Source of the DNA: an uncultured Thermoleophilia bacterium
Lineage (GTDB): Bacteria > Actinomycetota > Thermoleophilia > UBA2241
Length of the DNA stretch: 64,000 nt
Assembly: GCA_963736645.1 (NCBI GenBank)
Contig: CAVTPJ010000008.1
Coordinates: forward strand, 653,325 to 717,324
Direction of reading: 5' to 3'
This document shows positions 6,825 through 44,229 of the stretch, piece after piece. The stretch's first letter is position 1, and every line of letters starts with the position of its first letter. Position numbers and translations under genes: made by a program. The notes under the pieces are model-generated. The model was not told where the DNA came from, made no database searches, and saw only the letters and a list, made by a program, of their open reading frames with translations.

Positions 6825-8615
6825 TTGGACTTCTACCAAGGCAAAGTGCTCAGGATCGACCTGAGCGCGGGCACCTCCGCCGTCGAGCCGCTCAACATGG
6901 AGTGGGCCGAGAAGTACATCGGCGGCAAGGGCCTGCTCCTGCGCTACATGTGGGAGGAGATCCCGCAAGGTCTCGACCCCTGGTCCGAGGACAATCCCGT
7001 CTTCCTCGTCACGGGGCCGTTCGCCGGCACCAACGTCAGCACGTCGTCGCGCCTCATCGTGGGCTGCAAGAGCCCGGTGACCGGGGTGCTCAACGACAGC
7101 TACGTGGGCGGCTCGTTCGCGCCCGAGATGAAGTTCGCCGGCTACGACATGATCATCATCACCGGGCGCGCTCCGCAGCCGACCGTGGTGACCATCAAGG
7201 ACGACGTGGTCGAGTTCCGGCCGGCGCAGCCCAAGTACTGGGGCATGAAGACCTCCGAGATCGAGCAGACGCTTCGCGAGGACTTCGACGAGAACGCCAA
7301 GGTGCTCTCCATCGGGCCGGCCGGCGAGAAGAAGGTCCCGTGGGCCTGCGTCTCCACCGACCAGTACCACAAGGCCGGACGTGGCGGTCACGGCGCGCTC
7401 CTGGGCGACAAGAACCTCAAGGCCGTCGCCATCCGCGGCACCGGCTCGGTGAGCGTCGGCGACGCCAAGGCGTTTCTCGCCGACATCTGGCGCATCCATG
7501 ACGAGCACGTCCTCACCGACGACAACTACTGGGTCCACGAAGAGGGCACGCCGATCCTCGTCGACCTCGTCAACGGCGCCGGCGCGTTCCCCACGCGCAA
7601 CTGGTCCGAGGGCGAGTTCGAGGACGCCGGCAACATCAACTCGGAGTCGTTCCAGAAGATCCGCATCAAGAAGCGCGCCTGCTACCAGTGCGCCATCGCC
7701 TGCCGCAACGTGCACAGCGTCGAGCTCGACGGCAAGACGGTCATGGGCGAGGGTCCGGAGTACGAGACCATCGCCCTCTGCGGCGCCAACTGCGGCATCG
7801 GCGACATCGCCGCGCTGGTCAAGTTCAACGAGCTGTGCGACGAGTGGGGCATGGACACCATCTCCTCGGGGTCGGTCCTCGGCCTCGCCATGGACCTCAC
7901 CGAGAAGGGCATCAAGGACTTCGGCGTGCGCTTCGGCGACGTGGAGAGCTATCTGGGCGCGCCCGAGCTCATGGCCACCCGCACCGGCGTCGGCGAGGAG
8001 CTCGCGCTCGGCTCGAAGCATCTGGCCGAGAAGTACGGCGCGCCCGAGCTGGCCATGGAAGTCAAGAACCTCGAGCTGCCGGGCTACGACCCGCGCGGCA
8101 CGTTCGGGATGAGCCTGTCGTACTCGACCTCCGACCGCGGCGGCTGCCACATGCGCTCGTATCCGGTCGGCGACGAGATCATCACCGGCGACGAGCCCGC
8201 CGACACCATGGAGGGCAAGGCCATCTACAACATCAACGGCCAGAACTTCTCCTCCATGAAATACCTCGGCATCTGGTGCGACTTCTGGGCGATCGACCTC
8301 AACCAGATGAGCCAGCTGTTCAAGCACGTCTGGAAGCGGGAGGTCACGGAGGAAGAGCTCGCGCTGGCCGGCGAGCGCGTCTGGAACCTCGGTCGCCTCT
8401 TCAATCTGCGCGAGGGCATGACGGCCGCCGACGACTACCTGCCCGAGCTGCTGCTCACCAGGCCGCACAAGAAGGGCCCCTCGGCCGGGCGGCTCATCGG
8501 CAAGGAGACCTTCGCCGAGAAGACGCAGGAGTACTACCAGCTCCGCGGCTGGGACGAGAACGGGGTCCCCACCGAAGAAAAACTCGCCGAGCTCGGCGTC
8601 GACGTCCGCCTCTAG
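6825..8615 (+). CDS. aor: tungsten-containing aldehyde:ferredoxin oxidoreductase
   Basis: 596 aa, AOR N- and C-domain motifs (Fe-S Cys ligands CYQCAIAC, pterin-binding GxxxDRGGCH..), full length; TAG stop. Confidence 0.9.
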   Translation: MDFYQGKVLRIDLSAGTSAVEPLNMEWAEKYIGGKGLLLRYMWEEIPQGLDPWSEDNPVFLVTGPFAGTNVSTSSRLIVGCKSPVTGVLNDSYVGGSFAPEMKFAGYDMIIITGRAPQPTVVTIKDDVVEFRPAQPKYWGMKTSEIEQTLREDFDENAKVLSIGPAGEKKVPWACVSTDQYHKAGRGGHGALLGDKNLKAVAIRGTGSVSVGDAKAFLADIWRIHDEHVLTDDNYWVHEEGTPILVDLVNGAGAFPTRNWSEGEFEDAGNINSESFQKIRIKKRACYQCAIACRNVHSVELDGKTVMGEGPEYETIALCGANCGIGDIAALVKFNELCDEWGMDTISSGSVLGLAMDLTEKGIKDFGVRFGDVESYLGAPELMATRTGVGEELALGSKHLAEKYGAPELAMEVKNLELPGYDPRGTFGMSLSYSTSDRGGCHMRSYPVGDEIITGDEPADTMEGKAIYNINGQNFSSMKYLGIWCDFWAIDLNQMSQLFKHVWKREVTEEELALAGERVWNLGRLFNLREGMTAADDYLPELLLTRPHKKGPSAGRLIGKETFAEKTQEYYQLRGWDENGVPTEEKLAELGVDVRL

Positions 8616-8627
8616 GAAGGGAATCCG

Positions 8628-9128
8628 ATGCCCCACGTGATGATCAGCAGGAAGAAGTGCACCGGGTGCCACATGTGCGAGCTGGCGTGCTCGGCCTACC
8701 ACGAAGGCGCCTACCGGCCGTCGGTCGCGCGGCTCTTCTCCGAGTGCAACCCCACCACCGCCGAGATCAAGGGGCACACGTGCCTCCAGACCGGTTGCGC
8801 CAAGTGTCAGGAGGCCTGTCCCAACGACGCCATCGTGACCAAGCGGATCACGGTGACGCCCAAGGGCTTCTTCGAGAGCAAGGAGAAGGTCGGGGACTCC
8901 GTCGAGGGCTTCGTGCTCGTCGTCGACGAGGACAAGTGCACCAACTGCGGCGAGTGCTACGAGGTGTGCCCCACAGACGTCATCCACCAGCACCCGGACC
9001 GCGAGGTCGCCTTCAAGTGCGACCTCTGCGACGGCGAGCCCCAGTGCATCGCCTTCTGCCAGAACAAGTACGTCTTCGCCGTCGATCTCAAGGTCGACAA
9101 GAAGGACAAGGAACTGGCGAGGGCGTGA
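8628..9128 (+). CDS. 4x[4Fe-4S] polyferredoxin, AOR electron-transfer subunit (AorA-like)
   Basis: Four Cys clusters (CTGCHMCELAC, CLQTGCAKCQEACP, CTNCGECYEVCP, CDLCDGEPQCIAFC); 12 nt after aor. Confidence 0.8.
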   Translation: MPHVMISRKKCTGCHMCELACSAYHEGAYRPSVARLFSECNPTTAEIKGHTCLQTGCAKCQEACPNDAIVTKRITVTPKGFFESKEKVGDSVEGFVLVVDEDKCTNCGECYEVCPTDVIHQHPDREVAFKCDLCDGEPQCIAFCQNKYVFAVDLKVDKKDKELARA

Positions 9129-9490: not shown

Positions 9491-10153
9491 ATGGACCAGC
9501 GCGGCCACAGATCCAGGCTCGAGCTGACCGGATTCGCCGACGCCGTGCACGGCCGGGCGAGCGTGCGCCGCTATCGCCCGGACCCGCTGCCGCGCGAGGA
9601 CGTGGCCGCCATGGTCGGCGTCGCCGTCCGGGCGGCCAACGCCGGCAACGCGCAGATGTGGCGCTTCGTCGCCGTGGAGGACGCGGGCCTGCGCGCGGCG
9701 ATGAGAGACGCCGTGGACGAGGCGCTCGACGTCATGGCGGCGTGGCCTGAGGCCGAGGACATGCAGAAGCGGCTGAAGGCGTATCGTGCCTACTCGACCT
9801 TCTTCGCCGAGGCGCCGCTCGTCATGGCCGTCTTCGGCCTCCCCTACGGCTCGATCGCGGACGAGCTGCTCGTCGAGCGTGGGACCTCTCGGGAAGAATG
9901 CGACCGGCTGCGTGCCCGCCCCGACCTGCAGAGCATCGGCGCCGCGGTGCAGCTGCTGTGCACGGCGGCGCACGCCATGGGCTACGGCTCGTGCTGGATG
10001 ACCGCGCCGGTCCTCGCCGCGCCGGCTATCGAGGCGCTGCTCGGGGTGGAGCCCCCGGCGACGCTGGTCGCGGTCGTCCCGATCGGCCTGCCGGCCTCTC
10101 CTCCGCGGCCGTCCACGCGTCGCCCGGTCGAGGACGTCCTCGAGTTCCGGTGA
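9491..10153 (+). CDS. nitroreductase family protein
   Basis: 220 aa, nitroreductase fold motifs (SVRRYRPDPLP, QMWRFVAVED, GYGSCWMT). Confidence 0.75.
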   Translation: MDQRGHRSRLELTGFADAVHGRASVRRYRPDPLPREDVAAMVGVAVRAANAGNAQMWRFVAVEDAGLRAAMRDAVDEALDVMAAWPEAEDMQKRLKAYRAYSTFFAEAPLVMAVFGLPYGSIADELLVERGTSREECDRLRARPDLQSIGAAVQLLCTAAHAMGYGSCWMTAPVLAAPAIEALLGVEPPATLVAVVPIGLPASPPRPSTRRPVEDVLEFR

Positions 10154-10264: not shown

Positions 10265-11335
10265 GTGAACCACCCCGGCGTCTCGATCGGCAGCCTCTGC
10301 GCGCGCATCGTCGAGGGCGCCGTCCCCGACGAGCGCGACGTCGAGTCGCTGCTCCGTGCCGGCGACGAGGCGCCGCTCGTGTTCGCCGCAGCGCGCGAGC
10401 TGCGCGCGCGCCACTCCGGCGACGCCGTCTTCCTCTACGGGTTCGTGTACTTCTCCACCTACTGCCGCAACGAGTGCGCCTTCTGCTACTACCGCGCGGA
10501 CAATGAGCTGAGCCCACGCTATCGCAAGACGACCGAGGAGGTCGTCGAGATCTGTCGCGACCTCGCCGGCTCCGGTGTCGTGCTGCTGGATCTCACCATG
10601 GGAGAGGATCCCGTCATCCACGACGAGCCGGGCAATGCCGCGCTCGTCGAGCTCGTCGCCGCCGTGGCGGACGGCGCGGGGCTGCCGGTCATGATATCGC
10701 CCGGCGTGCTTCCTGAGGCCGCTCTCGGCGAGCTGCGCGAGGCCGGCGCCGACTGGTACGCACTGTACCAGGAGACCCACACACGCGAGCTCTACGATCG
10801 TCTGCGCATCGGCCAGCCGTTCGAGGCGCGCGCAGCCGCGCGTGCAGCCGCCCGGCGCGCCGGCCTGATGGTCGAGGACGGCCTGCTCACCGGCATCGGC
10901 GACTCCGCGGCCGACCGCGCCCGCTCGATCGCCGCCATGCGCACGGCCGGATGGGAACAGGTGCGCGTGATGACCTTCGTCCCCCAGACGGGCACCCCGC
11001 TCGAGGGTGCGTCTCCGGCCGGCGACGCCGACGAGCTGCTCACCATCGCCGCCATGCGTCTCGCCATGCCCGACCGCTTCATCCCCGCCTCACTCGACGT
11101 CGACGGCATCGCCGGCCTCGAACGGCGGCTCGAGGCCGGGGCGAACGTCGTCACGTCGATCGTGCCGCCGACCGTGGGGCTCGCCGGCGTATCCCAGGCG
11201 GAGCTGGACATCGACGAGGGCTACCGCACGGTGCACGGCGTCCTGCCTCACCTCGCCCGGCTCGGGCTGCGCCCGGCCGGCGTCGAGGAGTACCGTGAGC
11301 GGACGGCGGCGGTCCACGCCGCGTGCGCGCGGTGA
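10265..11335 (+). CDS. pylB: methylornithine synthase PylB (radical SAM)
   Basis: Near-collinear motif matches to Methanosarcina PylB as recalled from memory: FVYFSTYCRNECAFCYY (CxxxCxxC), DLTMGEDP, LPVMISPG, ALYQETHTRELYDRLRIGQ, VRVMTFVPQTGTPLEG, FIPASLDVDGIAG, AGANVVTSIVPP; RBS GGGAGGAG before the GTG. Confidence 0.9.
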   Translation: MNHPGVSIGSLCARIVEGAVPDERDVESLLRAGDEAPLVFAAARELRARHSGDAVFLYGFVYFSTYCRNECAFCYYRADNELSPRYRKTTEEVVEICRDLAGSGVVLLDLTMGEDPVIHDEPGNAALVELVAAVADGAGLPVMISPGVLPEAALGELREAGADWYALYQETHTRELYDRLRIGQPFEARAAARAAARRAGLMVEDGLLTGIGDSAADRARSIAAMRTAGWEQVRVMTFVPQTGTPLEGASPAGDADELLTIAAMRLAMPDRFIPASLDVDGIAGLERRLEAGANVVTSIVPPTVGLAGVSQAELDIDEGYRTVHGVLPHLARLGLRPAGVEEYRERTAAVHAACAR

Positions 11336-11339
11336 TCCC

Positions 11340-12584
11340 ATGCGCCTCCTGATCGTCGGCGGCAAGCTGCAGGGCACGGAGGCCGCCTATCTGGCGGCCA
11401 AGGCCGGGTGGGAGACCGTCCTGGTCGACCGGCACGACGCGCCGCCGGCCGCCGGCCTCGCCGACATGCACGTGATCGCCGACATCACCGCGGACGAGGC
11501 GCGAGCGCGGACCCTGGCAACCTCGTGCGACGCGGTCCTGCCTGCTTGCGAAGACGAGACCACACTCGCGTGGCTGGCGGCGCGCGTACCCCAGTGGGGC
11601 GTGCCGTTCCTGTTCGACCTCGACGCCTACCGCGTCACGGCGTCGAAGCTCGCGTCGCGCCGGATGTTCGCCTCGCTCGACGTGCCGCGGCCGGCCGCGT
11701 GGCCCTCTGGGGGCCTTCCCGCGGTGGTCAAGCCGAGCACCGCGAGCGGGAGCGAGGGCGTCGTCGTCGCCCACGATGAGAAGGAGCTCGACGCTGCCCG
11801 AGGCGAGCTGGAGGCGGCCGGCCATGATGTGGTCATCGAGGAGTACGTGCCCGGGCCGTCGCTGTCGATCGAGGTGCTGGCGTGGGGTGGGCGTGCCGTG
11901 CCGCTCCAGGTCACCGGCCTGGAGTTCGACGCGGCGTACGACTGCAAGCGCGTGGTCGCGCCGGTGGGCGAGGCGGCGGAAGGATCGCCTGCGGCGGTCG
12001 GCCTCGACGGCGCGTGTGACTGGGACGCGGCCGTCGGCGCCGGCGTGCTGGAGGCGCTGGACGCCGCGGCACTGCGCATCGCCCTCGGTCTTCGTCTGAA
12101 CGGCCTGATGGACGTCGAGGTCATGGTCGGCGGGCCGGAGCCCAAGGTCCTCGAGGTCGATGCGCGTCTTCCCAGCCAGACGCCGACCGCCGTGTACTGG
12201 TCCAGCGGCCTCAACATCGTCGAGCTCCTGGCCGAGACCGCGCGCGTGGGCGTGCCGCCGGCGGTGGACCGTACGGCCCGGCGCGCAGTCGTCTATCAGC
12301 ACGTGCGGGCCTCCGGGGGTTTGCTGGAGGTGCTCGGCGAGCATGTCATGGGAAGCGCCGGTCCCCTGAAACTGGTTCCCGGGTTCTTCGGCGCTGACGA
12401 GGCGCTCACGGACTACGCTCCTGGGCGCCGTGAGTGGGCGGCCACGCTGATCGTCGCCGCGGCGACCACCTCGGAGGCGCGTCGGCGGGCCGGAGAGACG
12501 GTGAGGAATGTGGCTGTCCACGAGCGCCTGGAGCCTGTACCTGAGGTAGAGATCGCACCGGCCTGTGAGGGAGGTCCCCGATGA
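11340..12584 (+). CDS. pylC: 3-methylornithine--L-lysine ligase PylC (ATP-grasp)
   Basis: N-terminus MRLLIVGGKLQGTEAAYLAAKAG matches the recalled PylC MKTICLVGGKLQGFEAAYL; EVDARLPSQTPTAVYWSSGLNIVELL matches recalled PylC IEIDARFPSQTPTVVYYSSGINLIELL. Confidence 0.9.
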   Translation: MRLLIVGGKLQGTEAAYLAAKAGWETVLVDRHDAPPAAGLADMHVIADITADEARARTLATSCDAVLPACEDETTLAWLAARVPQWGVPFLFDLDAYRVTASKLASRRMFASLDVPRPAAWPSGGLPAVVKPSTASGSEGVVVAHDEKELDAARGELEAAGHDVVIEEYVPGPSLSIEVLAWGGRAVPLQVTGLEFDAAYDCKRVVAPVGEAAEGSPAAVGLDGACDWDAAVGAGVLEALDAAALRIALGLRLNGLMDVEVMVGGPEPKVLEVDARLPSQTPTAVYWSSGLNIVELLAETARVGVPPAVDRTARRAVVYQHVRASGGLLEVLGEHVMGSAGPLKLVPGFFGADEALTDYAPGRREWAATLIVAAATTSEARRRAGETVRNVAVHERLEPVPEVEIAPACEGGPR

Positions 12585-13387
12585 CACGACTGACCGAGAC
12601 CGACGTCACGGCGCTGACGAGAGGCCTGGACGCGTTCGAGGACCGCTTGCTCCAGGTGTCGGGGCTTGACCTGCGCGACGTGGCCTTGCGCACGGCCACC
12701 GACGATGTGCGGTGCGTGCAGATGCGCGGCGCGCGTGTCGCGGTCGTCCCGGTGTCGTCGGGAGAAGGCTTCATTCCCGGGTTCACCGAGTGCGTCGAGG
12801 CGATCCTGACCCATCTCGGCTGTGACGCCTGGGTCACGACGCAACCCGACGTGCGCGGCATCCAGGCTGCTGTGGCCGCCGGCGCGACCGTCCTCTTCCT
12901 CGCCGACGATCGTCGCTTCATCGCCCTCAACGTCACGAGGGGGTGCTCCGCGGACGACGACCCCGCCACGGCCGACGGCTACGTGACCGTGCTCGACGCG
13001 GCGGCGGGGGGGCTCCTTGAGCGGCGCGTCCTGCTGCTCGGGCTGGGCCCCGTGGGTCGTGCGGCGGCGAGGCGACTCGTCAGTCGTGGGGCGACGGTCT
13101 TCGTGGCCGAGCCCGATGAGCAACGTGTCGCGGCGGCGCTCGACGTCGGTCTGAAGATCGAGCCCGTCGATCTCTCCAAGGGGCTGGAGCTCTGCGACCT
13201 GGTCTTCGACGCGTCCCCGGCGGCCGGCATCATCGACGCCGGCGACGTGGGACCGGAGACGATCGCCGCCGTCCCCGGCCTGCCCTCCGCCTTCACCGCG
13301 GCGGCTCAGGAGGTCCTCGGCGTGCGCCACATCCACGAGCCGCTCGCCATCGGCGTGGCGGTCATGGCGGCGCGCGCGTTGCTCTGA
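12581..13387 (+). CDS. pylD: pyrrolysine synthase PylD (3-methylornithyl-N6-lysine dehydrogenase)
   Basis: 268 aa; VAVVPVSSGEGFIPGFTE, Rossmann LLLGLGPVGRAAARRL and IHEPLAIGVAVM match recalled PylD motifs; overlaps pylC by 4 nt. Confidence 0.85.
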   Translation: MTRLTETDVTALTRGLDAFEDRLLQVSGLDLRDVALRTATDDVRCVQMRGARVAVVPVSSGEGFIPGFTECVEAILTHLGCDAWVTTQPDVRGIQAAVAAGATVLFLADDRRFIALNVTRGCSADDDPATADGYVTVLDAAAGGLLERRVLLLGLGPVGRAAARRLVSRGATVFVAEPDEQRVAAALDVGLKIEPVDLSKGLELCDLVFDASPAAGIIDAGDVGPETIAAVPGLPSAFTAAAQEVLGVRHIHEPLAIGVAVMAARALL

Positions 13388-13425
13388 CCGTGGCGCGCGG
13401 GCGTCGTTGTACAATCAACGGGCGC

Positions 13426-13498
13426 GGGGGGTCGATCGGAAGGATCAGCGTGGGCTCTAAACCCACGTAGGCGGGTGTGACTCCCGCACTCCCCGCCA
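13426..13498 (+). tRNA. pylT: tRNA-Pyl (anticodon CUA, amber suppressor)
   Basis: 73 nt GGGGGGTCGATCGGAAGGATCAGCGTGGGCTCTAAACCCACGTAGGCGGGTGTGACTCCCGCACTCCCCGCCA; anticodon loop CUCUAAA (CUA at 13458-13460); acceptor 5'-GGGGGG / CCCCGCCA-3'; architecture and sequence closely match the recalled Desulfitobacterium hafniense tRNAPyl; 38 nt after pylD. Confidence 0.85.
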
Positions 13499-13572
13499 GC
13501 ACTTCTCCTCTTCGCGGGGACGCGCATCCGGCGCCGGCCTCCGTCGCGGGCCGGGTCTCGGGGGGCTCCCGT

Positions 13573-14502
13573 TCAGTCGGCCGCGAAGGTCACCGGGATG
13601 CGCACCTCGTTCTGGCGGGAGCCATCCTCCATCGACTGGTCGAAGACCGTGAGCGTCCCGTCCGCGGCCGACGTCGAGTAGGGGACCCTCCTCGCGAAGG
13701 TCCCGCGGCCGGGGGCGCCGCGGGTGGCCTGCATGATGACGTTGACGACGCGGCGGCCGCTGGCGTCGACGAGGCGCGCCTGGAAGGAGCCTTCGAAGAC
13801 GCTCGCCGTCCCGGTGAGCGTGAAGGGGCTGGAGATCACGGCCCCGACCCCCGGCGACTCGACGAAGATCGCCGGCTCGAAGCTGCGCCAGTCGCTGCGG
13901 CGCTGGCTCTCGGCGAGCACGATCCCCTCGCCGCCCAGCGCGTCGACAGGGGTGCCGTCGAGCAGGAACTCGACCGACCTCACCGTGCGGAACTGGGTGA
14001 GTGTGTACACGACCTGTGCCACGCGGGCGGTCATCGAGAGAGTGCCGCCCCCTGAGGCGAACCGTCCGGAGAGGTCCACGCGTGCCGTCGTCCCGTCGAT
14101 GGTGAGGCCCAGGAGCCGGGTCCCCTTGGGGACCGCGCTGCCGAGGCCGGCGGCCCGCTCCCCGGCCGTCGGGCCGGCGAGCAGGCCGTTGACTGCCGCA
14201 GTGGCCGGCATGGACGTGGCCGGCACCCGGCGCTCTGCGACGCCGAGCTTCTCTCCCCGCAGGAAGTACACGCGGAGCGTCGTCTCCTCAGCGGCGCCGG
14301 ACGGCGATGGAGAAGGAGACTGCGACGGCTCCACCGATGGTCCGACCGTGACCGTGACCGTGGCGGTGGGCTTCGGGGATCCGTCGCCCGACGATCCGCC
14401 GCAGGCGGCGATCAGAGCGGACCCGATCACGACGACCACCGCCGCGGCGATCAGCAGGAGCGGGAGCAGGCGGCCGAAGCCGGCTGCGATGCGACGCGTC
14501 AT
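13573..14502 (-). CDS. GerMN-domain (spore germination protein-like) lipoprotein
   Basis: Lipobox LIAAC after the signal peptide, Ser/Pro-rich linker, then a GerMN plus Ig-like (Gmad2-type) region; start taken at M17 (ATG 14502). Confidence 0.6.
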   Translation of the reverse strand: MTRRIAAGFGRLLPLLLIAAAVVVVIGSALIAACGGSSGDGSPKPTATVTVTVGPSVEPSQSPSPSPSGAAEETTLRVYFLRGEKLGVAERRVPATSMPATAAVNGLLAGPTAGERAAGLGSAVPKGTRLLGLTIDGTTARVDLSGRFASGGGTLSMTARVAQVVYTLTQFRTVRSVEFLLDGTPVDALGGEGIVLAESQRRSDWRSFEPAIFVESPGVGAVISSPFTLTGTASVFEGSFQARLVDASGRRVVNVIMQATRGAPGRGTFARRVPYSTSAADGTLTVFDQSMEDGSRQNEVRIPVTFAAD

Positions 14503-14609
14503 CGGGCACCTCGGGTCGATGTGGGTGGGACGAACCTTCGACGTCCCCACGCCGCGCTCCTGCTCACTCCGCCGGGAGCTCCGGGACGCCGTGCTAGACT
14601 GGCGTCCCG

Positions 14610-14939
14610 ATGCCGACCGACCCCAACAAGGCGCGCTATTATCGCAAGCAGGTCCCGCTCTTCCGTCTGGTAGAGAAGATGAAGCTGTGGCCGTCGCGGA
14701 GAGGCATCCTCCACGGGATCAGGCAGTTCGAGGAGCGCGGCCGTTACGCTGTCGTGGTGACGCACTGCGGCAAGCACATGGTCGTCCACGACTCCAAGAC
14801 GAGCCGCGCCGCCCGCTGGCTGCGCAACAAGTGGTATGCGGAGGCCTGTCCGCAGTGCCGCATCCCGGAGTGGAAGCTGCAGAAGTACGCCTCGACGCAG
14901 TTCAAGCGCGGGTACGGCTCGCACCTGCACGACCTCTGA
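14610..14939 (+). CDS. pylSn: pyrrolysyl-tRNA synthetase N-terminal tRNA-binding domain protein (PylSn)
   Basis: 109 aa; LWPSRRGILHGI...CGKHMVVHDSKTSRAARWLRNKWYAEACPQCRI aligns with the recalled M. mazei PylRS N-domain LWMSRTGTIHKI...[33 protein letters not shown] (zinc-ribbon Cys conserved). Confidence 0.85.
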   Translation: MPTDPNKARYYRKQVPLFRLVEKMKLWPSRRGILHGIRQFEERGRYAVVVTHCGKHMVVHDSKTSRAARWLRNKWYAEACPQCRIPEWKLQKYASTQFKRGYGSHLHDL

Positions 14940-14964: not shown

Positions 14965-15843
14965 CTAGAGCAGGCGCCAGCTCTCCGGGCGCAGCTGCAC
15001 GGACTCCGGCGCGCCCAGCACCCGGTCCAGCTGTTCAAGGATGGCCGCCTTGTCGCCGGGCAGGCGGCCGCCGATCGGCAGGTAGTTCGAGGCGTGGTTG
15101 CAGCGGAAGAGGCAGTCCGTGACGTCCAGGTGCGCGACGATCTCGCGCAGCTCGCGGAGCATCCCGACGGAGTCCGGCAACACGACCTCGCTGGTGGCCA
15201 CCTTGCGCTCCATCGCCGTACCCGGGGTGAGCATGAGCGTGAGAAGCCCGATGTACTCGGGGTCGATCGACGACAGCGCGCTGCCCGTCGCCGCGGCGTG
15301 GACCAGCGAACGCTCTCGACCGGCGAGACCGAGGATCGCGGTGACCGAGAGCCGCATGCCGGCGTCCGACGCTCGCCGGCATCCTTCGATCTGCTCGGCC
15401 ACGGTCATGCCCTTGTGGATGGCCGCGAGCGTCTCGTCGTCGCCGGACTCGAGGCCCAGATAGAGAAGGCGTATGCCGCGCTCGCGTAGCGCCGCCAGCT
15501 CCTCCACCGACTTGGCAAGGAGGTTCTTCGCGTTGGCGTAGCTGCTCACCCGCTCGAGGTTGGGCAGGGCGCGGTGCAGCAGGTCGAGGATCGCATCGAG
15601 TCTGCGGGCGCTGAGCGCCATCGCGTCGCCGTCGGCCAGGAAGACCCGCCTGACGCGCTGGCGCACGCTCGCCGGCAGTCCGGTGACGTCTTCGACGACC
15701 TCGTCGAACGGTCGCACGGAGAACGGTTTGTCGAGGTAGGTGCCGCAGAAGTCGCAGGTGTTGTTGGAGCAGCCGTACGTGACCTGCACGATCAGGCTGT
15801 CGGCCTCGCTGGGGGGACGGATGACGGCGCCGTGGTACCTCAC
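14965..15843 (-). CDS. radical SAM domain protein (uncharacterised)
   Basis: CSNNTCDFC radical-SAM cluster motif about 25 aa after a GTG at 15843; the track ORF extends to 16017 but the upstream Arg/Pro-rich stretch looks non-coding. Confidence 0.65.
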   Translation of the reverse strand: MRYHGAVIRPPSEADSLIVQVTYGCSNNTCDFCGTYLDKPFSVRPFDEVVEDVTGLPASVRQRVRRVFLADGDAMALSARRLDAILDLLHRALPNLERVSSYANAKNLLAKSVEELAALRERGIRLLYLGLESGDDETLAAIHKGMTVAEQIEGCRRASDAGMRLSVTAILGLAGRERSLVHAAATGSALSSIDPEYIGLLTLMLTPGTAMERKVATSEVVLPDSVGMLRELREIVAHLDVTDCLFRCNHASNYLPIGGRLPGDKAAILEQLDRVLGAPESVQLRPESWRLL

Positions 15844-16113
15844 GGTATCGATGCTAGCATGGGCCGCCGGGCGGCGCTCCCCGCTCCGGCGGCTTGGCGG
15901 GAACCGCGTGCTCCCGGCTTGTGGTCGGCGGCTCAAGCGGCTGATATACTCCCGGCACGTGCTGTGGGAGGGCGTCCGGGGGAGCGTCCGGCCGGAAGGG
16001 ATCCGGCTCGTTCTCACCTCCGGCTTGCGGTGTCATCGCCCGATCCTCATGCACCCGCCATACCTCGTTGCGCGGTAAACAGTTGTGAGCAAAGTCGGGA
16101 GGAGTCCAGGGTC

Positions 16114-16746
16114 ATGGCAGACATCTACGCAGAAGCAGCCGAGACTATCGTGAACGCCGATCGGGCCGCGGCCGAGGAGGTCGCGCAGCGCGCGCTCGAC
16201 TCCGGCATCGCCCCGGCGGACATCATGCAGAACGGCTTCGTCAAGGGCATCCAGGAGGTCGGCGACCTCTTCGAGAGCGGCGAGGTCTTCCTCCCCGAGC
16301 TCATGATGAGCGCGGACGCCATGGCCGGCGCCACCGAGGTCACCAACGCCGCCCTCGAGGGCGAGGCCGCCGAGGCCAAGGGCGTCATGGTCATCGGCAC
16401 CGTCCAGGGCGACGTCCACGACATCGGCAAGGCGATCGTCATCGCCTATCTCAAGGCCAACGGCTACGAGGTCACCGACCTCGGCCGCGACGTCAGCGCC
16501 GACACCTTCGTCGAGAAGGCCAAGGAGCTCAACGCCGACGTCATCGGCATGAGCGCCCTGCTCACCACCACCATGGAGGAGCAGAAGAAGGTCATCAAGG
16601 TCATCAAGGAGGAGGGCCTGCCCTTCAAGACCGTCGTCGGCGGCGCGCCGTGCACGCAGCGCTGGGCCGACCAGATCGGCGCCGACGCCTACGCCGAGGA
16701 CGCCAACGACGGCGTCAAGAAGATCGACGCGCTGCTGGGCAAGTAG
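16114..16746 (+). CDS. cobalamin-binding corrinoid protein (methyltransferase cognate, MtmC/MttC/MtbC-like)
   Basis: 211 aa; B12-binding DxHxxG motif (GDVHDIGK) and helical cap domain; RBS GGGAGGAG upstream of ATG 16114; TAG stop. Confidence 0.8.
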   Translation: MADIYAEAAETIVNADRAAAEEVAQRALDSGIAPADIMQNGFVKGIQEVGDLFESGEVFLPELMMSADAMAGATEVTNAALEGEAAEAKGVMVIGTVQGDVHDIGKAIVIAYLKANGYEVTDLGRDVSADTFVEKAKELNADVIGMSALLTTTMEEQKKVIKVIKEEGLPFKTVVGGAPCTQRWADQIGADAYAEDANDGVKKIDALLGK

Positions 16747-16840: not shown

Positions 16841-17701
16841 CTAGAGGTTGAGCCGCACGCCGTCGACGTAGCTGAGGCTACGGCCTGCGCGCTCGATGTT
16901 GGGATAGCCCTCGCGCGTCATGATGAGGCGCTCGAGCCCGAACCCGAGCCCGACCCACGGGTCGACGATGCCCCAATTGCCGTCCAGCGGGTGTGGGCCG
17001 AGGCCCGCGGAGCACACCTCGGCCCCTCCGACCAGGACGTCGATCATGGCGCCGTAGACCTCCGAGTCCGTGACCTCGAGCTCGTACGAGGCGATGCCGG
17101 CAGCGTCCATGACGAGGCGGGCGAGAGTCTCCAGCCGCTCCCGGCCCTCCTTGGCCGGCCTGCCGAGCTCGACGAGGTTCAGCATCGTGAACTCGTTCAG
17201 GTGGCTGGCCCCCTTGCTGTCCCGGCGGAAGCACGGGCCGATCTCGAAGATGCCGAACGGCTTGGTCCAGAGCCTGCTCAGCCTGCGGAGCAGGGTGTAC
17301 AAGTTGGGCGCGAGCATCGGCCGCAGGCAGCGGCCGTCGTCGAGCCAGAACACCTGCTCGCGGAGCGGGTGACCGTGCTCGATACCCATCTTGCGCAGCG
17401 CGTCCGAAGTGATGATGAGCGGGGTCACGACGCGGACGAAGCCGGCGGCGACGAGCGCGTCGCTGAGGCCCGTCTCGAGCTCGACGAGTTGCGGAGCCCG
17501 CCGGCCTTCGCGCAGCTCCCGCAGCCGCCGCCGTCCGTCCGCCGCCAGCTCGTTCTCGAGCCGCTTGAAGGCTGCATCGCGAGCGTCGGAGCTCGCGAAG
17601 AGCTCGTCGAGCACGACCGGGTCGCCGCCGAGCTCACGCAAGCGCTGCGACTGCGTCGCCGTCAGGCGGACGCGGAGAGCGTCGGCTTCGTCCGGTGTCA
17701 C
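16841..17701 (-). CDS. pylSc: pyrrolysyl-tRNA synthetase catalytic domain (PylSc)
   Basis: Class II aaRS core; CLRPMLAPNLYTLLRRLSRLWTKPFGIFEIGPCFRRDSKGASHLNEFTMLNL and C-terminal SYVDGVRLNL near-collinear with recalled D. hafniense PylSc and M. mazei PylRS; start GTG 17701 overlaps the upstream amidase stop (GTGA); the track ORF extends an Arg-rich 67 aa further and is rejected. Confidence 0.9.
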   Translation of the reverse strand: MTPDEADALRVRLTATQSQRLRELGGDPVVLDELFASSDARDAAFKRLENELAADGRRRLRELREGRRAPQLVELETGLSDALVAAGFVRVVTPLIITSDALRKMGIEHGHPLREQVFWLDDGRCLRPMLAPNLYTLLRRLSRLWTKPFGIFEIGPCFRRDSKGASHLNEFTMLNLVELGRPAKEGRERLETLARLVMDAAGIASYELEVTDSEVYGAMIDVLVGGAEVCSAGLGPHPLDGNWGIVDPWVGLGFGLERLIMTREGYPNIERAGRSLSYVDGVRLNL

Positions 17702-18783
17702 GGCGTCCCATCCTCTATCGGGACGCGCGCGAGGTAGTCGGCGAACCCGCCGACCAGCGCGCGCGCCAGCCTCTCCACGTACTCCGGCCGCTGCGTCTGC
17801 GCTTCGTCGTCCGGGCAGGTCAGAAAGAGCGGCTCGACCACGAGGGCGATGCCGCGGGTCTCGCGCAGGACGCCGTAGTTGCGTCCGAAGCCGCCGAGCC
17901 ACGGTACGCCGGCGGCTTCCAGACGGGCGCCGATGTAGCCCGCCAGACGGCGTCCGTGCTCCGAGTAGTAGTGGCTGCGCTGGAAGAAGTAGCCGGCGCC
18001 CCCGCGGGCCGCCGGCGACGCGTCCTCATTGCAGTGCAGTGAGAGGAAGTAGGAGGAGCCGGCGGCGTTCGCCGCGTCGGCGCGGGCGTAGAGCGGCACG
18101 CGCTCGTCGGTCTCGCGCGTGAGGTGCACGCGGCAGCCCTCGGCGCGGAGCAGCTCCGCCAGCCGCCGGCCCAGGGCGAGCGTCACGTCTTTCTCCACGA
18201 CGCCGCCCGGCGAGACGCAGCCCAGGTCGTTGCCGCCGTGGCCGGGGTCGACCGTGACGGCCTGCCCGGTGAGGCCGCGGGCGGCGACGAAACCACGGTC
18301 GCGCTCGGGGATCTTCTTCCCCTCGCGCCCTGACTCGGCCTTGCGCACCGCCTCGAGCTTTCGGAGGGTGCTCTCGCCGACGATGCCGTCCACCGGGACG
18401 CCCGCGTTCTGCTGGAAGTCGAGGACGGCGCGTTCGACGTCCTCGTCGAGTACGCCGCGCTCGGCGCCGGCGTTGAAGCCCAGCAGGTTCAACTTGACCT
18501 GCAGTTGGAGGACGTCGTCGCCGCGGAACGGCGGCTCGCGAAGATAGAGCAGACGGTCGCCGAGCGTGTAGCCCGCTTCGACGATCTCGCGCCAGGTGTT
18601 GGCGCCGACGCGGCCGTCGGCAAGCAGCCCGCGCTCCTGCTGGAACGAGAGGACGGCGCCCTCCGTATGGGGACCGAAGAAGCCGTCCACGCCTTCCCGG
18701 CCTAGCTGGAAACCCTGCCCGCGCAGGCGGGTCTGGACGTCGAGGACTTCTTTGCCGCGGTCGCCGCGGGAGAGGTCACGCAC
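17698..18783 (-). CDS. N-acetylmuramoyl-L-alanine amidase with peptidoglycan-binding repeats
   Basis: Two PG_binding_1-like repeats N-terminal, then an Amidase_3 domain (VTVDPGHGGNDLG...LSLHCNE). Confidence 0.8.
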   Translation of the reverse strand: MRDLSRGDRGKEVLDVQTRLRGQGFQLGREGVDGFFGPHTEGAVLSFQQERGLLADGRVGANTWREIVEAGYTLGDRLLYLREPPFRGDDVLQLQVKLNLLGFNAGAERGVLDEDVERAVLDFQQNAGVPVDGIVGESTLRKLEAVRKAESGREGKKIPERDRGFVAARGLTGQAVTVDPGHGGNDLGCVSPGGVVEKDVTLALGRRLAELLRAEGCRVHLTRETDERVPLYARADAANAAGSSYFLSLHCNEDASPAARGGAGYFFQRSHYYSEHGRRLAGYIGARLEAAGVPWLGGFGRNYGVLRETRGIALVVEPLFLTCPDDEAQTQRPEYVERLARALVGGFADYLARVPIEDGTP

Positions 18784-31561: not shown

Positions 31562-32239
31562 ATGGCTCGCCAGGCCGACCACAGCCGCGGCACGGGATCG
31601 TCTCACAACCCTCAACCATTCAGTGAGAGTGCCGACTTCGCGCTCGTCCAGGCGTATCGCCGTGGCAACAAGGCCGCGCTCGACGCGCTCATGGCGCGCT
31701 ATCACCAGTTCGTGCGCCTCAAGGCCAGTTCGTACTTCCTGGCCGGCGGGGACGCGGAAGACCTGATCCAGGAGGGGCTGCTCGGCCTCTACAAGGCGGT
31801 CCGCGACTACCGCGACGACCGCCTGGCCAGCTTTCGCAGCTTCGCGGAGCTCTGCATCACCCGCCAGATCATCACCGCGATCAAGACGGCGACGCGCCAG
31901 AAGCACGTGCCGCTGAACGGCTACCTGTCGTTCAGCCAGTCGCCGAGCGATTCGTCCGACGACGGCGACTGCTCGCTCGCCGACGTGCTGCCGGGGCCCA
32001 CCACGCACGATCCGGTCAACCAGGTCATCAGCTCCGAAGAGGTGGACAGCCTCACCGGCTGCCTCACGCGGATGCTCTCCGAGCTCGAGGGCAAGGTCCT
32101 GCGGCTCTACCTGCAGGGCCTCAGCTACGAGCGCATCGCCGGTGAGCTCGGCTGCGACTGCAAGACCGTGGACAACGCCCTGCAGCGCATCAAGCGCAAG
32201 GTGGACCTGCACCTCGAGGGACGGCGCGTCCCCAGCTGA
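31562..32239 (+). CDS. sigH: RNA polymerase sigma-H factor (sigma-70 family)
   Basis: Region 2 (DAEDLIQEGLLGLYKAVRDY) and region 4 HTH (LSYERIAGELGCDCKTVDNALQR); position downstream of yacP as in Bacillus. Confidence 0.8.
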   Translation: MARQADHSRGTGSSHNPQPFSESADFALVQAYRRGNKAALDALMARYHQFVRLKASSYFLAGGDAEDLIQEGLLGLYKAVRDYRDDRLASFRSFAELCITRQIITAIKTATRQKHVPLNGYLSFSQSPSDSSDDGDCSLADVLPGPTTHDPVNQVISSEEVDSLTGCLTRMLSELEGKVLRLYLQGLSYERIAGELGCDCKTVDNALQRIKRKVDLHLEGRRVPS

Positions 32240-36077: not shown

Positions 36078-37493
36078 TCAATCCGCGCCGGCGGCGCGAC
36101 GCACCGTTCCGCGAGGGGTCGGGAGCGGCCACTTGCGCTTGAGCGCCTTGATGAACGCCCGGTTGCGCTCGTCCCGGCGCCAGTTGCGGATGATCGCCAT
36201 GCCCCACCAGTGGAACAGCAGCTGCTTGGTGAACTGCAGCGTGAAGATGTAGCCCAGCCAGGTGCGCAGCGAGTAGAAGCGCATGTAGCCGCGGAGCACC
36301 TCGATCTGCAGTTCGTAGGGCGTCATGAGCGCCGGCTCGAAGACGACGTGGTGGGCGTCGTAGAGCTCCCACCGCTTGTCGAAGATGCGGCCGGCCTCGT
36401 CGAACTCCTTGAACTGGAGCGTCCCGGGCAGCGGCGTGAGGATGTTCAGCATCACCGTGTCGATCTTGTTCTTGATCGCGAAGGCGACGGTGTCGCGGAC
36501 GGTCTGCACGTCGTCGCTGTCGGCGCCGAGCACGAACATGCCGTGGCTCTTGATGCCGTAGTCGTGCAGGATCCTGATGGCGTTCTCGATGTCGGCCACC
36601 GTCTGCGATTTCTCGAACCGGTCCAGTGTCTCCTGGTTGACCGACTCGAGGCCGAGGTAGACGAGCTGGCACCCTGAGCGCTGCATGAGATCCAGCAGCT
36701 CCGCGTCGCGGACCACGTCCGTGCGCACCTGGGCAGACCAGGGGATCACGAGACCCTCGTCGATCATCATCTGCAGCAGCGTCTTGAGCCGCTTGCGGTT
36801 CGCGGCCATGTTGTCGTCGTAGAAGAAGATGCGCTGCGGGCGCTTGTCTTTGAGTTCTGCGATCACGCTCTCCGCGCTGCGAAAGCGGTACTTCTTGCCG
36901 AACATCGCCGTGACGGAGCAGAACGTGCAATCGAAGGGGCAGCCCCAGCTGGTCATGATCGGCATCGTCGTGAGTCTGTCGCCGCCCACGAGCAGACGCA
37001 GGTCGGGGAACGGCAGCTCGTCGAGGTCGGCGAGGGCTGCACGCGGAGGATTGTGCACCGCGACGCCGTCGCGCATGAACGAGAGGCCGGCGATGGTGTC
37101 GAGCTCGCGGTCGCCGGCGAGCGCCTCGATGAGCTCGAGCATGAGCTGCTCGCCGCCTTCTCCGCGGGCGACGAAGTCCACGTGCTCGAGCGCCTCGTCG
37201 GCCATGAAGGTCACGTGCGAGCCGCCGATCACGACGGGGATGCCGCGTGCGCGCAGGTCGCGGGAGAAGGCGTAGGCGGTCGATGCCGTCGAGGTCGTGC
37301 TCGAGAGGCCGACGAGATCCGAGGTGTTGACGTCGTCCCAGTCGATGGGCGCCATGGTCGGGTTGTAGACGAGCACGTCGTGGCCGTGCTCCTTGAGCGC
37401 GGCGGCGATGATCGGCAGCCCCAGGCGGGGAAGCAGGACCTTCGCCCACACGTGCATGCCGGGCGGCTCGGGCTCGATGAGGCGGATCTTCAT
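36078..37493 (-). CDS. B12-binding-domain radical SAM protein (class B)
   Basis: N-terminal cobalamin-binding Rossmann region, then radical SAM CPFDCTFC; start at the internal Met (MKIRLIEPEPP); the exact start coordinate is +/-1-2 nt because codon phasing at the 37500 line boundary could not be reconciled from the printed sequence. Confidence 0.7.
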   Translation of the reverse strand: MKIRLIEPEPPGMHVWAKVLLPRLGLPIIAAALKEHGHDVLVYNPTMAPIDWDDVNTSDLVGLSSTTSTASTAYAFSRDLRARGIPVVIGGSHVTFMADEALEHVDFVARGEGGEQLMLELIEALAGDRELDTIAGLSFMRDGVAVHNPPRAALADLDELPFPDLRLLVGGDRLTTMPIMTSWGCPFDCTFCSVTAMFGKKYRFRSAESVIAELKDKRPQRIFFYDDNMAANRKRLKTLLQMMIDEGLVIPWSAQVRTDVVRDAELLDLMQRSGCQLVYLGLESVNQETLDRFEKSQTVADIENAIRILHDYGIKSHGMFVLGADSDDVQTVRDTVAFAIKNKIDTVMLNILTPLPGTLQFKEFDEAGRIFDKRWELYDAHHVVFEPALMTPYELQIEVLRGYMRFYSLRTWLGYIFTLQFTKQLLFHWWGMAIIRNWRRDERNRAFIKALKRKWPLPTPRGTVRRAAGAD

Positions 37494-37706
37494 GGCGCTC
37501 CTTGGAACTGGGAACGAGCCATCGGGGTCGCTGGTCGGTCTGTGGCCGATCCGCGGCCGCGAGAGGGCGGTCACCCGGTCGATGATGTCAGTCGCAAGGT
37601 CTCACGCCGCGCGGCCGGGCAAACGCCGCGCGGAAGCGCTTCTTCAAGGGACAGCATACCGCACTGCAGACGGGGTGACGCCCGCCGCTCCCGGCGGGGC
37701 AGGCCC

Positions 37707-41970: not shown

Positions 41971-42651
41971 TCAGACGCCGGCCAGCTCCCAGAAGCGGGG
42001 CTCGTCCAGCGTTTCACCGGGCTCGACGACGATGAACTCCTCGTCGTGAGGCCCGGCCACCAGCTTCTCGAGAAACCGCAGCGAGCCGGTGAGGGGCACG
42101 AGCGGCAGCTCGTAGAACTCGCTCACGGTCTCGAGGTACTCCCGCTTGTCCTCGAGCCCCGGCACGCCCGGCGTCTCGATGACGGCGACGCGGGTGTAGT
42201 GCTCCATGATCATGCGGGCCACGCGCGCCGACCTCTCCTCGCCGTACTTGGGGACGATCTTGAGGTACTCCTTGTACGGGTCCTCGATGAAGTCCACCCA
42301 CCCGCGCGTGTAGTAGTACGTGCCCGGCTGGGCGCCGTGCTCCTCGAGATACCGGGCGCGTGAGCCGAGCAGCAGGGAGATGCAGTCGTCGGCTGCCGGC
42401 AGCACGAGGCGGTGCTCGCCCCCCTGCAGGCCGACGGTGCCGTTGCTGCATCGGGCGCACGCGAGGTAGATGTCGCAGTCGCCCGGCGTGCTGTCTATGC
42501 GCTCCTGGAGGGCGCTGCGCAGCCTGTCCGGGTAGTCGTGCAGCGCCCCGTCGACGAACTCGATCTCGAGGCCGCGCCCGTCTCTCTCGAGCACGCACTC
42601 GATCTCGTTGCGGAGCACTTCGCAGCTGACGATCCTGGGGGCCGGACTCAT
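41971..42651 (-). CDS. DUF1638 domain protein
   Basis: Matches the DUF1638 pattern (CEVLRNEIE...DYPDRLRSALQERID...IYLACARCSNG); start at internal ATG 42651. Confidence 0.55.
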   Translation of the reverse strand: MSPAPRIVSCEVLRNEIECVLERDGRGLEIEFVDGALHDYPDRLRSALQERIDSTPGDCDIYLACARCSNGTVGLQGGEHRLVLPAADDCISLLLGSRARYLEEHGAQPGTYYYTRGWVDFIEDPYKEYLKIVPKYGEERSARVARMIMEHYTRVAVIETPGVPGLEDKREYLETVSEFYELPLVPLTGSLRFLEKLVAGPHDEEFIVVEPGETLDEPRFWELAGV

Positions 42652-42839
42652 GACCGCATAGTAACAGGACCGTAGCGGTCCTGTCGCTCCGGCGGTCACC
42701 CGCGAGCGCCTCGCGCGCGCGGCATCCACGTGTACGCGGTCGCGCCGCCTGCGGTAGCATGGTCATCTCGCTTTCGTGGACGACATCGTCGCGTCGCGGT
42801 GCTTCACGGCCGTGCGCGCTGGAGCATGAGGAGGATCTC

Positions 42840-43694
42840 GTGAGCGTCAACAAGCTGCTCGTCGCGGGCGCCGGCCAGATGGGCGCCGGCATCGTCCAGG
42901 TCTCGGCCGTCGCCGGGCTCGAGGTCGTCATGATCGACGTGGCCGAGGAGTTCGTCGCGCGCGGCATGGCGGGTATCGAGAAGGGCCTCGGCAGACTGGT
43001 CGACAAGGGCCGCATGGAGGCATCGGCTCGTGATGCGGCCTTGGCTCGGATCACGACGAGCACCGACATGGCGGCCGGCGCCGACGCCGATCTCTTCATC
43101 GAGGCGGCGCCGGAGTCGATGGAGCTCAAGCAGGGTCTCTTCGAACAGGTCGCCGCTCTGCTGCGGCCGGACGCGATCATCGCCTCCAATACGTCGAGCC
43201 TCTCGGTGAGCGCTCTCGCCGCGTTCGTCACGGAGCCGCAGCGCTTCGTCGGCATCCACTTCTTCAACCCCGTGCCGATGATGGCGCTGGTCGAGGTCGT
43301 GCGCGGCGAGCGGACGAGCGACGCGACGCTCGCCGCCGCCAGGGAGTTCGCGGAGGCGGTCGGCAAGACGGCGATCACCGTCAAGGACTCTCCCGGGTTC
43401 GTCGTCAACCGCATCCTCTTCCCGATGATCAACGAGGCCGCCAACGCCTTCGCCGAGGGTGTGGCCAGCGCCGAGGACATCGACACGGGCATGAAGCTCG
43501 GCGCCAATTGGCCGATGGGCCCGCTCGCGCTCGCCGACCTCGTGGGCATCGACACGACGACGGCCATCATCGAGTCGCTGGAACGTGAGCTCGGCGATCC
43601 CAAGTACGCGCCGAGCCCGGCGCTCAAGGGGCTGCTTGCCGCCGGCAAGCTCGGCCGCAAGAGCGGCGCCGGGTTCTACGACTACGGCAAGTGA
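42840..43694 (+). CDS. hbd: 3-hydroxybutyryl-CoA / 3-hydroxyacyl-CoA dehydrogenase
   Basis: NAD-binding VAGAGQMGAGI, 3HCDH catalytic and C-terminal domains; GTG with RBS GAGGAGG. Confidence 0.85.
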   Translation: MSVNKLLVAGAGQMGAGIVQVSAVAGLEVVMIDVAEEFVARGMAGIEKGLGRLVDKGRMEASARDAALARITTSTDMAAGADADLFIEAAPESMELKQGLFEQVAALLRPDAIIASNTSSLSVSALAAFVTEPQRFVGIHFFNPVPMMALVEVVRGERTSDATLAAAREFAEAVGKTAITVKDSPGFVVNRILFPMINEAANAFAEGVASAEDIDTGMKLGANWPMGPLALADLVGIDTTTAIIESLERELGDPKYAPSPALKGLLAAGKLGRKSGAGFYDYGK

Positions 43695-43701
43695 CGCCGC
43701 C

Positions 43702-44229
43702 GTGACGCCTCTCGAGCGAGGGTACGCCCAGCTCTACACGGGCGACGGCAAGGGCAAGACGACCGCGGCGCTCGGCCTCGTCCTGCGTGCGCTCGGCCAG
43801 GGTCTGCGACCCGCCGTGCTCCAGTTCATGAAGGCCGATCCCACCTGGGGCGAGATCGTCACACTGAAGAAGCTCGGAGTGCCGGTGCGGCAGTGCGGGC
43901 TTGACCACTGGGTGTTCAAGGGCGAGGCCTCGGACGAGGACCTCGCCGCTGCGGCCGCCGGGTTCGACAGGGCGAAGGCGCTGGTCGAGGGCGGCGACTA
44001 CGACCTGGTGGTCCTGGACGAACTCGTGACGGCGGTCTTTTTCGAGTTGATCCCCGTGACCAGGGTGACCGACCTCATCGCCGGCAAACCGGAGGCGGTC
44101 GAGCTGGTGATCACCGGCCGCCGCGCGCCGGAGGAACTGATCGAGGCGGCCGACCTCGTCACCGAGATGCGCCCGCTCAAGCACTACTTCGACGCGGGCG
44201 TGCAGGCGCGTCCGGGCATCGAGTTCTGA
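43702..44229 (+). CDS. cobO: cob(I)yrinic acid a,c-diamide (corrinoid) adenosyltransferase CobO/BtuR type
   Basis: P-loop YTGDGKGKTTAALG and CobA/CobO family length (175 aa). Confidence 0.8.
   Translation: MTPLERGYAQLYTGDGKGKTTAALGLVLRALGQGLRPAVLQFMKADPTWGEIVTLKKLGVPVRQCGLDHWVFKGEASDEDLAAAAAGFDRAKALVEGGDYDLVVLDELVTAVFFELIPVTRVTDLIAGKPEAVELVITGRRAPEELIEAADLVTEMRPLKHYFDAGVQARPGIEF

Follow-up and report, generated by a model that had tools for sequence, protein, structure and literature searches.

Gene content of the pyl locus

The window, i.e. the whole 64-kb stretch of DNA analysed here, has a G+C content of 70% and carries a predicted gene for tRNAPyl (pylT) within a group of pyl genes. Three of these lie directly upstream of pylT on the forward strand. 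The first, pylB (methylornithine synthase; 10265..11335, +), scored 448 bits with the NCBIfam model TIGR03910 (cut-off 348). The second, pylC (3-methylornithine--lysine ligase; 11340..12584, +), scored 329 bits with TIGR03909 (cut-off 248); its start is approximate, the match beginning at residue 115 of the open reading frame 11007..12584. The third, pylD (3-methylornithyl-N6-lysine dehydrogenase; 12581..13387, +), scored 206 bits with TIGR03911 (cut-off 150) and also matched the Pfam family PylD_N. The pylT gene occupies 13426..13498 (+). Its 5′ end follows the pylD stop codon at a distance of 38 nt, in agreement with the first-pass annotation, which had placed pylD upstream of the tRNA.

On the other side of pylT, a GerMN/Gmad2-domain gene unrelated to pyl (13573-14550, −) is followed by pylSn (14610..14939, +), a separate gene for the small tRNA-binding subunit of PylRS, which scored 127 bits with TIGR03912 (cut-off 51). 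Next come a radical-SAM gene (14965-16017, −) and a gene for an MtbC-like corrinoid protein (16114..16746, +), which scored 227 bits with TIGR02370 (pyl_corrinoid; cut-off 215), a type cognate to Pyl-dependent methylamine methyltransferases. The catalytic PylRS subunit of 286 aa is encoded by pylSc (16841..17701, −; TIGR02367, 326 bits, cut-off 178). Its GTG start codon was set by comparison with the 286-aa homologue of the related locus L002; it overlaps by 4 nt with the stop codon of the amidase gene upstream, a hint that the two genes are co-translated. With pylBCD directly upstream of pylT, pylSn 1.1 kb and pylSc 3.3 kb downstream of it, the pyl genes take up 7.4 kb, are found on both strands and have unrelated genes among them. 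Judged by these family scores, a complete but dispersed gene set predicted to make pyrrolysine and to attach it to the window tRNA is present.

Other genes of the window were also noted. A BluB-like nitroreductase gene (9491-10153) lies directly upstream of pylB, and further corrinoid-related genes encode a B12-binding radical-SAM enzyme, a DUF1638 protein and a corrinoid adenosyltransferase (36078-37574, 41971-42729 and 43585-44229). These genes fit corrinoid-dependent methyl transfer, and no methyltransferase subunit was found in the window. Scores for sporulation-type families were obtained for the SleB/CwlD-like amidase (17698-18783), a SigH-type sigma factor (31562-32239) and the GerMN domain encoded at 13573-14550.

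Identification of pylT

Analysis of the whole 64-kb window with ARAGORN revealed a tRNA-Pyl (anticodon CTA, position 32) as the only tRNA. It has the same coordinates, 13426..13498 (+), as the tRNA-Pyl gene proposed in the first-pass annotation, and its 73-nt sequence, GGGGGGUCGAUCGGAAGGAUCAGCGUGGGCUCUAAACCCACGUAGGCGGGUGUGACUCCCGCACUCCCCGCCA, matches the one quoted there. That annotation had also suggested scoring the region with a Pyl-specific covariance model. Such a model, here called R1, gave a single match over both strands of the window, at 13426..13498 (+), with 85 bits and an E value of 1.2e-19. Thermoleophilia sequences were left out of the inputs of R1, which comprised the tRNAPyl of D. 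hafniense and M. mazei and eight more, taken from Desulfobacterales, Peptococcaceae, Eubacteriales and two distant loci of Actinomycetota. The first two sequences were reconstructed from Table 1 of PMC6337575, with three transplanted bases reverted.

A scan of the window at the Rfam gathering scores yielded no tRNA match, RF00005 included, and RF00005 remained silent even when 13300-13650 (351 nt) was scanned permissively, at E ≤ 10. Rfam is without a Pyl family, and the miss by RF00005 is expected because the tRNAPyl family departs far from the general tRNA model. For annotation this means that pylT is a gene missed by general tRNA covariance models. The earlier remark that standard scanners often miss this species thus holds for the general Rfam model, but not for ARAGORN, which found the gene in the window and in 45 of 46 related loci. 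From these matches, and from the fold and covariation described below, 13426..13498 can with high confidence be regarded as a functional pylT that provides a Thermoleophilia bacterium (Actinomycetota) with its amber-suppressor tRNAPyl.

Predicted secondary structure

A cloverleaf fold had been named in the first-pass annotation as a further check. The minimum free energy fold was indeed a cloverleaf of the tRNAPyl type (−36.7 kcal/mol, 56% of the ensemble, z = −2.5 relative to shuffled sequences). Its acceptor stem has 7 bp, formed by positions 1-7 (G1-U7) with 63-69 (A63-C69) and including a G5.U65 wobble; the 6-bp acceptor described before is one pair too short. A lone connector base, C8, joins the acceptor stem to the D arm, which consists of a 4-bp stem (GAUC/GAUC) and a 5-nt loop (GGAAG). 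The second base of this loop is G, A, U or C among the relatives, so that its GG is no conserved motif. After the junction base A22 follows the anticodon stem, 23-29 with 37-43, whose core of 6 bp (24-29 with 37-42) showed compensatory changes in five pairs. It is closed by the 7-nt loop C-U-CUA-A-A (13455-13461), in which the anticodon CUA (13457-13459) is flanked by U33 and A37 in conventional tRNA numbering; this loop is invariant in 54 homologues. The T arm has a 5-bp stem and the loop UGUGACU without T-psi-C; in all 54 sequences the T loop has U as its first and A as its fifth base (U54.A58). The 3′ end is formed by the discriminator G70 (13495) and an encoded CCA (13496-13498). The tiny D loop, the CUCUAAA loop, the non-canonical T loop, the G discriminator and the encoded CCA had all been recognized correctly at first reading.

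Covariation supported the helices. In a mixed alignment of 54 tRNAPyl (22 distinct), 98.6% of the pair cells held standard pairs and compensatory changes were found in 12 of 23 pairs, a number reached in none of 500 shuffles; when the 3′ partners were slid by 1-3 columns, pairing fell to 35-59%. Among the matches listed, 45 distinct 73-nt sequences gave 99.4% pairing and compensatory changes in 10 pairs; in this set, the search pattern had fixed part of the D arm and the T stem, and those pairs are uninformative there. Since all four helices are supported, a simple terminator hairpin is ruled out.

Additional base at the junction of D and anticodon stems

Classical tRNAPyl has a length of 72 nt including CCA. 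The tRNA of the whole Thermoleophilia group has 73 nt, with A22 and G23 at the junction of D stem and anticodon stem where a single base is found elsewhere. Bases 23 and 43 were complementary in all 45 distinct sequences among the matches listed (G-U in 23, G-C in 12, A-U in nine and C-G in one, the last represented by one contig), whereas the equivalent bases of 72-nt tRNAPyl are often unable to pair (A.C, C.U, G.A). Given the column compositions, 45 pairings out of 45 would be expected by chance with a probability of about 1e-3, a figure that ignores phylogenetic relatedness. The variable region, U43 A44 G45, is YAG as in classical tRNAPyl. Nominally it has the 3 nt stated in the first-pass annotation, but its U43 is complementary to G23 and can pair with it. 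The likely arrangement is therefore an anticodon stem of 7 bp and a variable loop of 2 nt; otherwise the connector would have 2 nt, the anticodon stem 6 bp and the variable loop 3 nt.

It is possible, and is proposed here tentatively, that these molecules represent a lineage-wide, structurally distinct subtype of tRNAPyl, with 73 nt, an anticodon stem of 7 bp and a variable loop of 2 nt, fixed across a clade of widespread uncultured Thermoleophilia from soil, peat and sediment whose pyl locus is dispersed but conserved. PylSn recognizes tRNAPyl at its T and variable loops, so that such a subtype, served by split PylSn and PylSc, could be a distinct and possibly orthogonal recognition class. 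If the proposal is true, pyrrolysine decoding would be an ancestral trait of a major environmental group of actinobacteria. The extra base, which is invariant, and the obligate pairing of 23 with 43 would offer genetic-code engineering a natural tRNAPyl with a differently shaped variable region.

The extra junction base has no characterised precedent and is missing from the surveys consulted. The exotic features of class S reported by Beattie et al. 2023 (PMC7615293) are D loops of 6-8 nt and discriminators A or U, and the junction feature is absent from them; the window tRNA sequence was found neither in the supplements of that study nor in a full-text literature search.

Some further variation was observed among the 73-nt tRNAs. 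In the related loci L007, L017, L018, L020, L021, L030 and L037, a C26.A40 mismatch lies in the middle of the anticodon stem. This applies to five of the 45 distinct sequences among the matches listed; the window has U26:A40 and the others C26:G40. Possibly the C.A pair is simply tolerated, or it marks an intermediate stage in a switch from U:A to C:G. Rare variants were seen in the metagenome loci (L059 onward): one had a U discriminator, and a subgroup combined T8, G8 or A8 with a G2.U68 wobble in the acceptor (3′ strand ACUCCUC). These rare variants point to further sub-lineages.

Sequences flanking pylT

The spacers upstream of pylT in 46 related loci were compared. A −10-type hexamer, TACAAT (13410..13415, +), which we infer to be part of the pylT promoter, lies 10 nt upstream of the 5′ end of the tRNA in the window. 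The motif TAnnnT occurred at −16 to −11 in 34 of the 46 loci and at most 2 nt off in 46 of 46, in the variants TACAAT, TAGAAT, TATCAT and TATGAT, while the surrounding spacers of 70% G+C were unconserved. The signal became visible only on comparison of the 46 loci: a scan of 13000-14000 for a two-hexamer consensus promoter yielded none, with no −35 match, and the consensus scan of the same region yielded no intrinsic-terminator pattern. The conserved TAnnnT box suggests that pylT has a promoter of its own. Directly 5′ of the mature tRNA, the tetranucleotide GCGC (13422..13425, +) was conserved at −4 to −1 in 91-100% of the 46 loci; it probably represents a short 5′ leader or RNase P context.

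A T- and pyrimidine-rich tract follows directly after CCA (13499..13514, +). In a comparison of the related loci, T made up 31% of positions +1 to +16, versus 11% in an upstream control, and pyrimidines 77%. This T/C-rich tract may be a termination or 3′-processing signal.

Distribution and conservation of the locus

The PylD protein of the window is 100% identical to a database protein (P0001), and its next relatives, with 66-84% identity, come from metagenome-assembled genomes (MAGs) labelled Thermoleophilia or Actinomycetota. When one genome was scanned for each GTDB species, 58 loci were obtained, 46 of which belong to Thermoleophilia/Actinomycetota MAGs; many of these were recovered from peat and fen samples or belong to the Microflora Danica set. 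Gene order is common to the 46 loci: genes for an aldehyde:ferredoxin oxidoreductase, a ferredoxin and a nitroreductase are followed by pylB, pylC, pylD and pylT and then by GerMN(−), pylSn, radical SAM(−), the corrinoid protein, pylSc(−), amidase(−) and UppP(−). In all but one of the 46, ARAGORN detected a tRNA-Pyl of 73 nt downstream of pylD; the exception, in locus L029, was found by R1 with 88 bits and has a normal CUA anticodon. Scanning metagenomes with a pattern that requires the 73-nt spacing gave matches in at least 120 contigs. When metagenome and earlier loci were pooled, the matches listed included 165 tRNA copies with this architecture; they comprised 45 distinct sequences, and 34 copies were identical to that of the window.

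In about 40 Thermoleophilia loci the GerMN/Gmad2 gene always lies between pylT and pylSn, and the radical-SAM gene always between pylSn and the corrinoid gene. Several loci (L001, L002 at 14244-14939, L004, L010 and others) have an extra ORF of 231 aa between the corrinoid gene and pylSc; in the window this spacer has 94 nt and is without the ORF. The ORF was considered as a Pyl-dependent methylamine methyltransferase and rejected as too short; by eye only, it has the look of a SAM-dependent methyltransferase.

Guo et al. 2022 reported "two Actinobacteria" among 81 bacterial genomes encoding PylRS. Literature searches combining pyrrolysine with Thermoleophilia or Actinomycetota yielded no description of the Thermoleophilia pyl locus or its 73-nt tRNA. 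Occurrence of the locus and its tRNA in 46 species-level MAGs and at least 120 metagenome contigs thus stands against two actinobacterial genomes in the open literature searched.

The window tRNA is base-identical to the tRNA of many of the 46 species, in which PylD is only 66-83% identical, indicating that the RNA is under much stronger purifying selection than the protein gene beside it. This pattern bears on the reading that the stretch is a decayed or unexpressed tRNA-like remnant, or at most a structured terminator ending the pylBCD operon. Such a role would suit its place directly after pylD, 38 nt past the stop codon, as well as its high G+C content, its stable fold and the T/C-rich tract behind it. 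A remnant or terminator would not be expected to stay identical or nearly so across dozens of species despite diverged spacers and PylD sequences, nor to undergo compensatory changes that keep all four helices rather than one hairpin, nor to hold its CUCUAAA loop, discriminator and CCA invariant. A conserved −10 box of its own upstream, and a consensus scan without an intrinsic-terminator pattern, point the same way. We consider this reading very improbable; the idea of a terminator for pylD only, which the first-pass annotation had named as a possible refutation, finds no support, given the conservation of the element across species and its −10-like box.

Proposed decoding of UAG

On the reading as a functional pylT, the tRNA would be transcribed from its own promoter of the sigma-A type (TACAAT, 13410-13415) with no conserved −35 element, starting about 4 nt upstream of G1, and RNase P would trim the 5′ leader. 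CCA addition would be unneeded, as CCA is encoded. PylSc, helped by PylSn, would charge the tRNA with pyrrolysine by way of the identity elements of class S (G73, G1:C72, U54.A58 and, in the D stem, a G:C and an A:U pair), and the normal elongation factor would bring it to in-frame UAG codons. The targets would presumably be methylamine methyltransferase genes outside the window, working with the MtbC-like corrinoid protein of the cluster.

Pfam and NCBIfam scans of about 55 ORFs revealed no mttB, mtbB or mtmB in the 64-kb window, and no convincing candidate emerged when all frames of the window were scanned for an in-frame TAG flanked by coding-like sequence. TAG ends nine of 55 genes of the window, including pylSc and the corrinoid protein gene. 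Its frequent use as a stop codon indicates that UAG is not reassigned genome-wide and that suppression must be partial or conditional, as it is in other Pyl-using bacteria. As far as can be judged from its sequence, the genome has everything needed to read UAG as pyrrolysine, and gene callers may consequently truncate UAG-containing genes elsewhere in it.

Genes of the window ending in TAG were also checked for an in-frame continuation into the next gene, and the most suggestive case of read-through was rejected. The aldehyde:ferredoxin oxidoreductase gene (from 6825) ends with TAG at 8613-8615, in frame with the 4Fe-4S ferredoxin gene at 8628-9128 and with no intervening stop, so that read-through of UAG would fuse both proteins. 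In 44 loci (the window and 43 related loci), the stop codon at this site was TAG in 21, TGA in 14 and TAA in nine, and the frame varied; the arrangement in the window was regarded as coincidence.

The tRNA might also be a working amber suppressor that carries something other than pyrrolysine; for example, a diverged PylRS might load it with lysine or a derivative of lysine, or its amino acid might come from another synthetase. PylRS enzymes accept many lysine analogues (PMC11467909), the window tRNA departs from characterised tRNAPyl in its C8 and its extra junction base, and no Pyl-dependent methyltransferase gene was seen in the window. A suppressor of this kind would be hard to reconcile with an adjacent, complete pylBCD that scores above the equivalog cut-offs and is syntenic in every relative, with PylSc and PylSn that score as equivalogs, or with the Pyl-type cognate corrinoid protein in the cluster, and there is in our view only a slight chance that the amino acid is not pyrrolysine. 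The probability is negligible that the molecule is a tRNA-like regulatory RNA controlling the neighbouring pyl genes outside translation: it does lie between pylD and pylSn, and its best weak Rfam match was to a viral element (Tymo_tRNA-like; 17.5 bits, far under the cut-off of 40 bits), but this match is insignificant (E value of 0.2 in the 351-nt search) and the RNA is built throughout as a tRNAPyl, its anticodon loop being invariant, its identity elements present and its CCA encoded.

Comparison with known tRNAPyl and other tRNAs

The molecule tRNAPyl, its architecture and its link with pylS and pylBCD are textbook knowledge. What is new here is a Thermoleophilia member of this known family, set apart by a minor structural variation shared across the lineage and by the unusual place of its gene.

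The closest counterpart is the tRNAPyl of D. hafniense, of bacterial class S, for which a crystal structure is available (PDB 2ZNI, as cited in PMC7609411). The close resemblance claimed in the first-pass annotation was borne out by an alignment in which 57 of 73 positions (78%) were identical, with one 1-nt indel; with M. mazei tRNAPyl, 46 of 74 aligned positions were identical. Both the window tRNA and that of D. hafniense have CUA in a CUCUAAA loop, a 7-bp acceptor with a G5.U wobble, a 4-bp GAUC/GAUC D stem with a 5-nt D loop, an anticodon stem of at least 6 bp, a YAG variable region, a 5-bp T stem, a U54.A58 T loop without T-psi-C, G73 and encoded CCA, and both are partnered by separate pylSn and pylSc genes. 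The identity and structural elements determined for D. hafniense (Herring et al., PMC1851642), i.e. G73, G1:C72, G10:C25, A11:U24, U54.A58, purine 57 and G5.U68, are all present in the window tRNA; in its own numbering, the discriminator and the first three of the pairs are G70, G1:C69, G9:C21 and A10:U20. Position 8 differs: G8 is a secondary element in D. hafniense, where a G8C exchange cut charging 8-fold (PMC1851642), and the window has C8. The D. hafniense tRNA also has 72 nt with a single A at the junction, whereas the window tRNA has 73 nt with A22 and G23, the latter always complementary to base 43, which probably gives a stem of 7 bp and a variable loop of 2 nt. Furthermore, pylT of the window follows pylD with a putative promoter of its own instead of heading a pylT-Sc-B-C-D-Sn cassette, and the pyl genes are scattered across 7.4 kb, on either strand. 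The Desulfobacterales loci examined have the same compact pylT-Sc-B-C-D-Sn cassette, in contrast to the dispersed set of the window.

Class S comprises systems of bacterial origin with PylSn and PylSc encoded by separate genes, and its tRNAs were clustered at a threshold of 75% (Beattie et al. 2023, PMC7615293). The separate genes of the window (pylSn, 14610-14939, +; pylSc, 16841-17701, −) and an identity of 78% with D. hafniense tRNAPyl, above that threshold, place the window pair in this class; the G5.U wobble in the acceptor is likewise shared.

More distant systems share parts of this architecture. The tRNAPyl of M. mazei and M. barkeri (archaeal class N) is likewise built as a compact cloverleaf: the connector is a single base, the D loop has 5 nt, the anticodon stem is long and the variable loop short, and G73 and G1:C72 are present (PMC7609411). 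It differs in having U8 and in being served by a PylSn-PylSc fusion, not by two proteins. Ca. Methanomethylophilus alvus (class A) likewise has an amber-decoding tRNAPyl with an anticodon stem that departs from the standard form. Its system is without PylSn (PMC7609411), whereas pylSn is present in the window, and the window tRNA differs in its C8, its 5-nt D loop and its unbroken stem. Outside the family, mammalian mitochondrial tRNASer(UCN) resembles the window tRNA as a structural analogue only, with its single connector, small D loop, 6-bp anticodon stem and 3-nt variable loop; it keeps G18, G19 and T-psi-C, and its sequence, anticodon and synthetase are unrelated to those of tRNAPyl.
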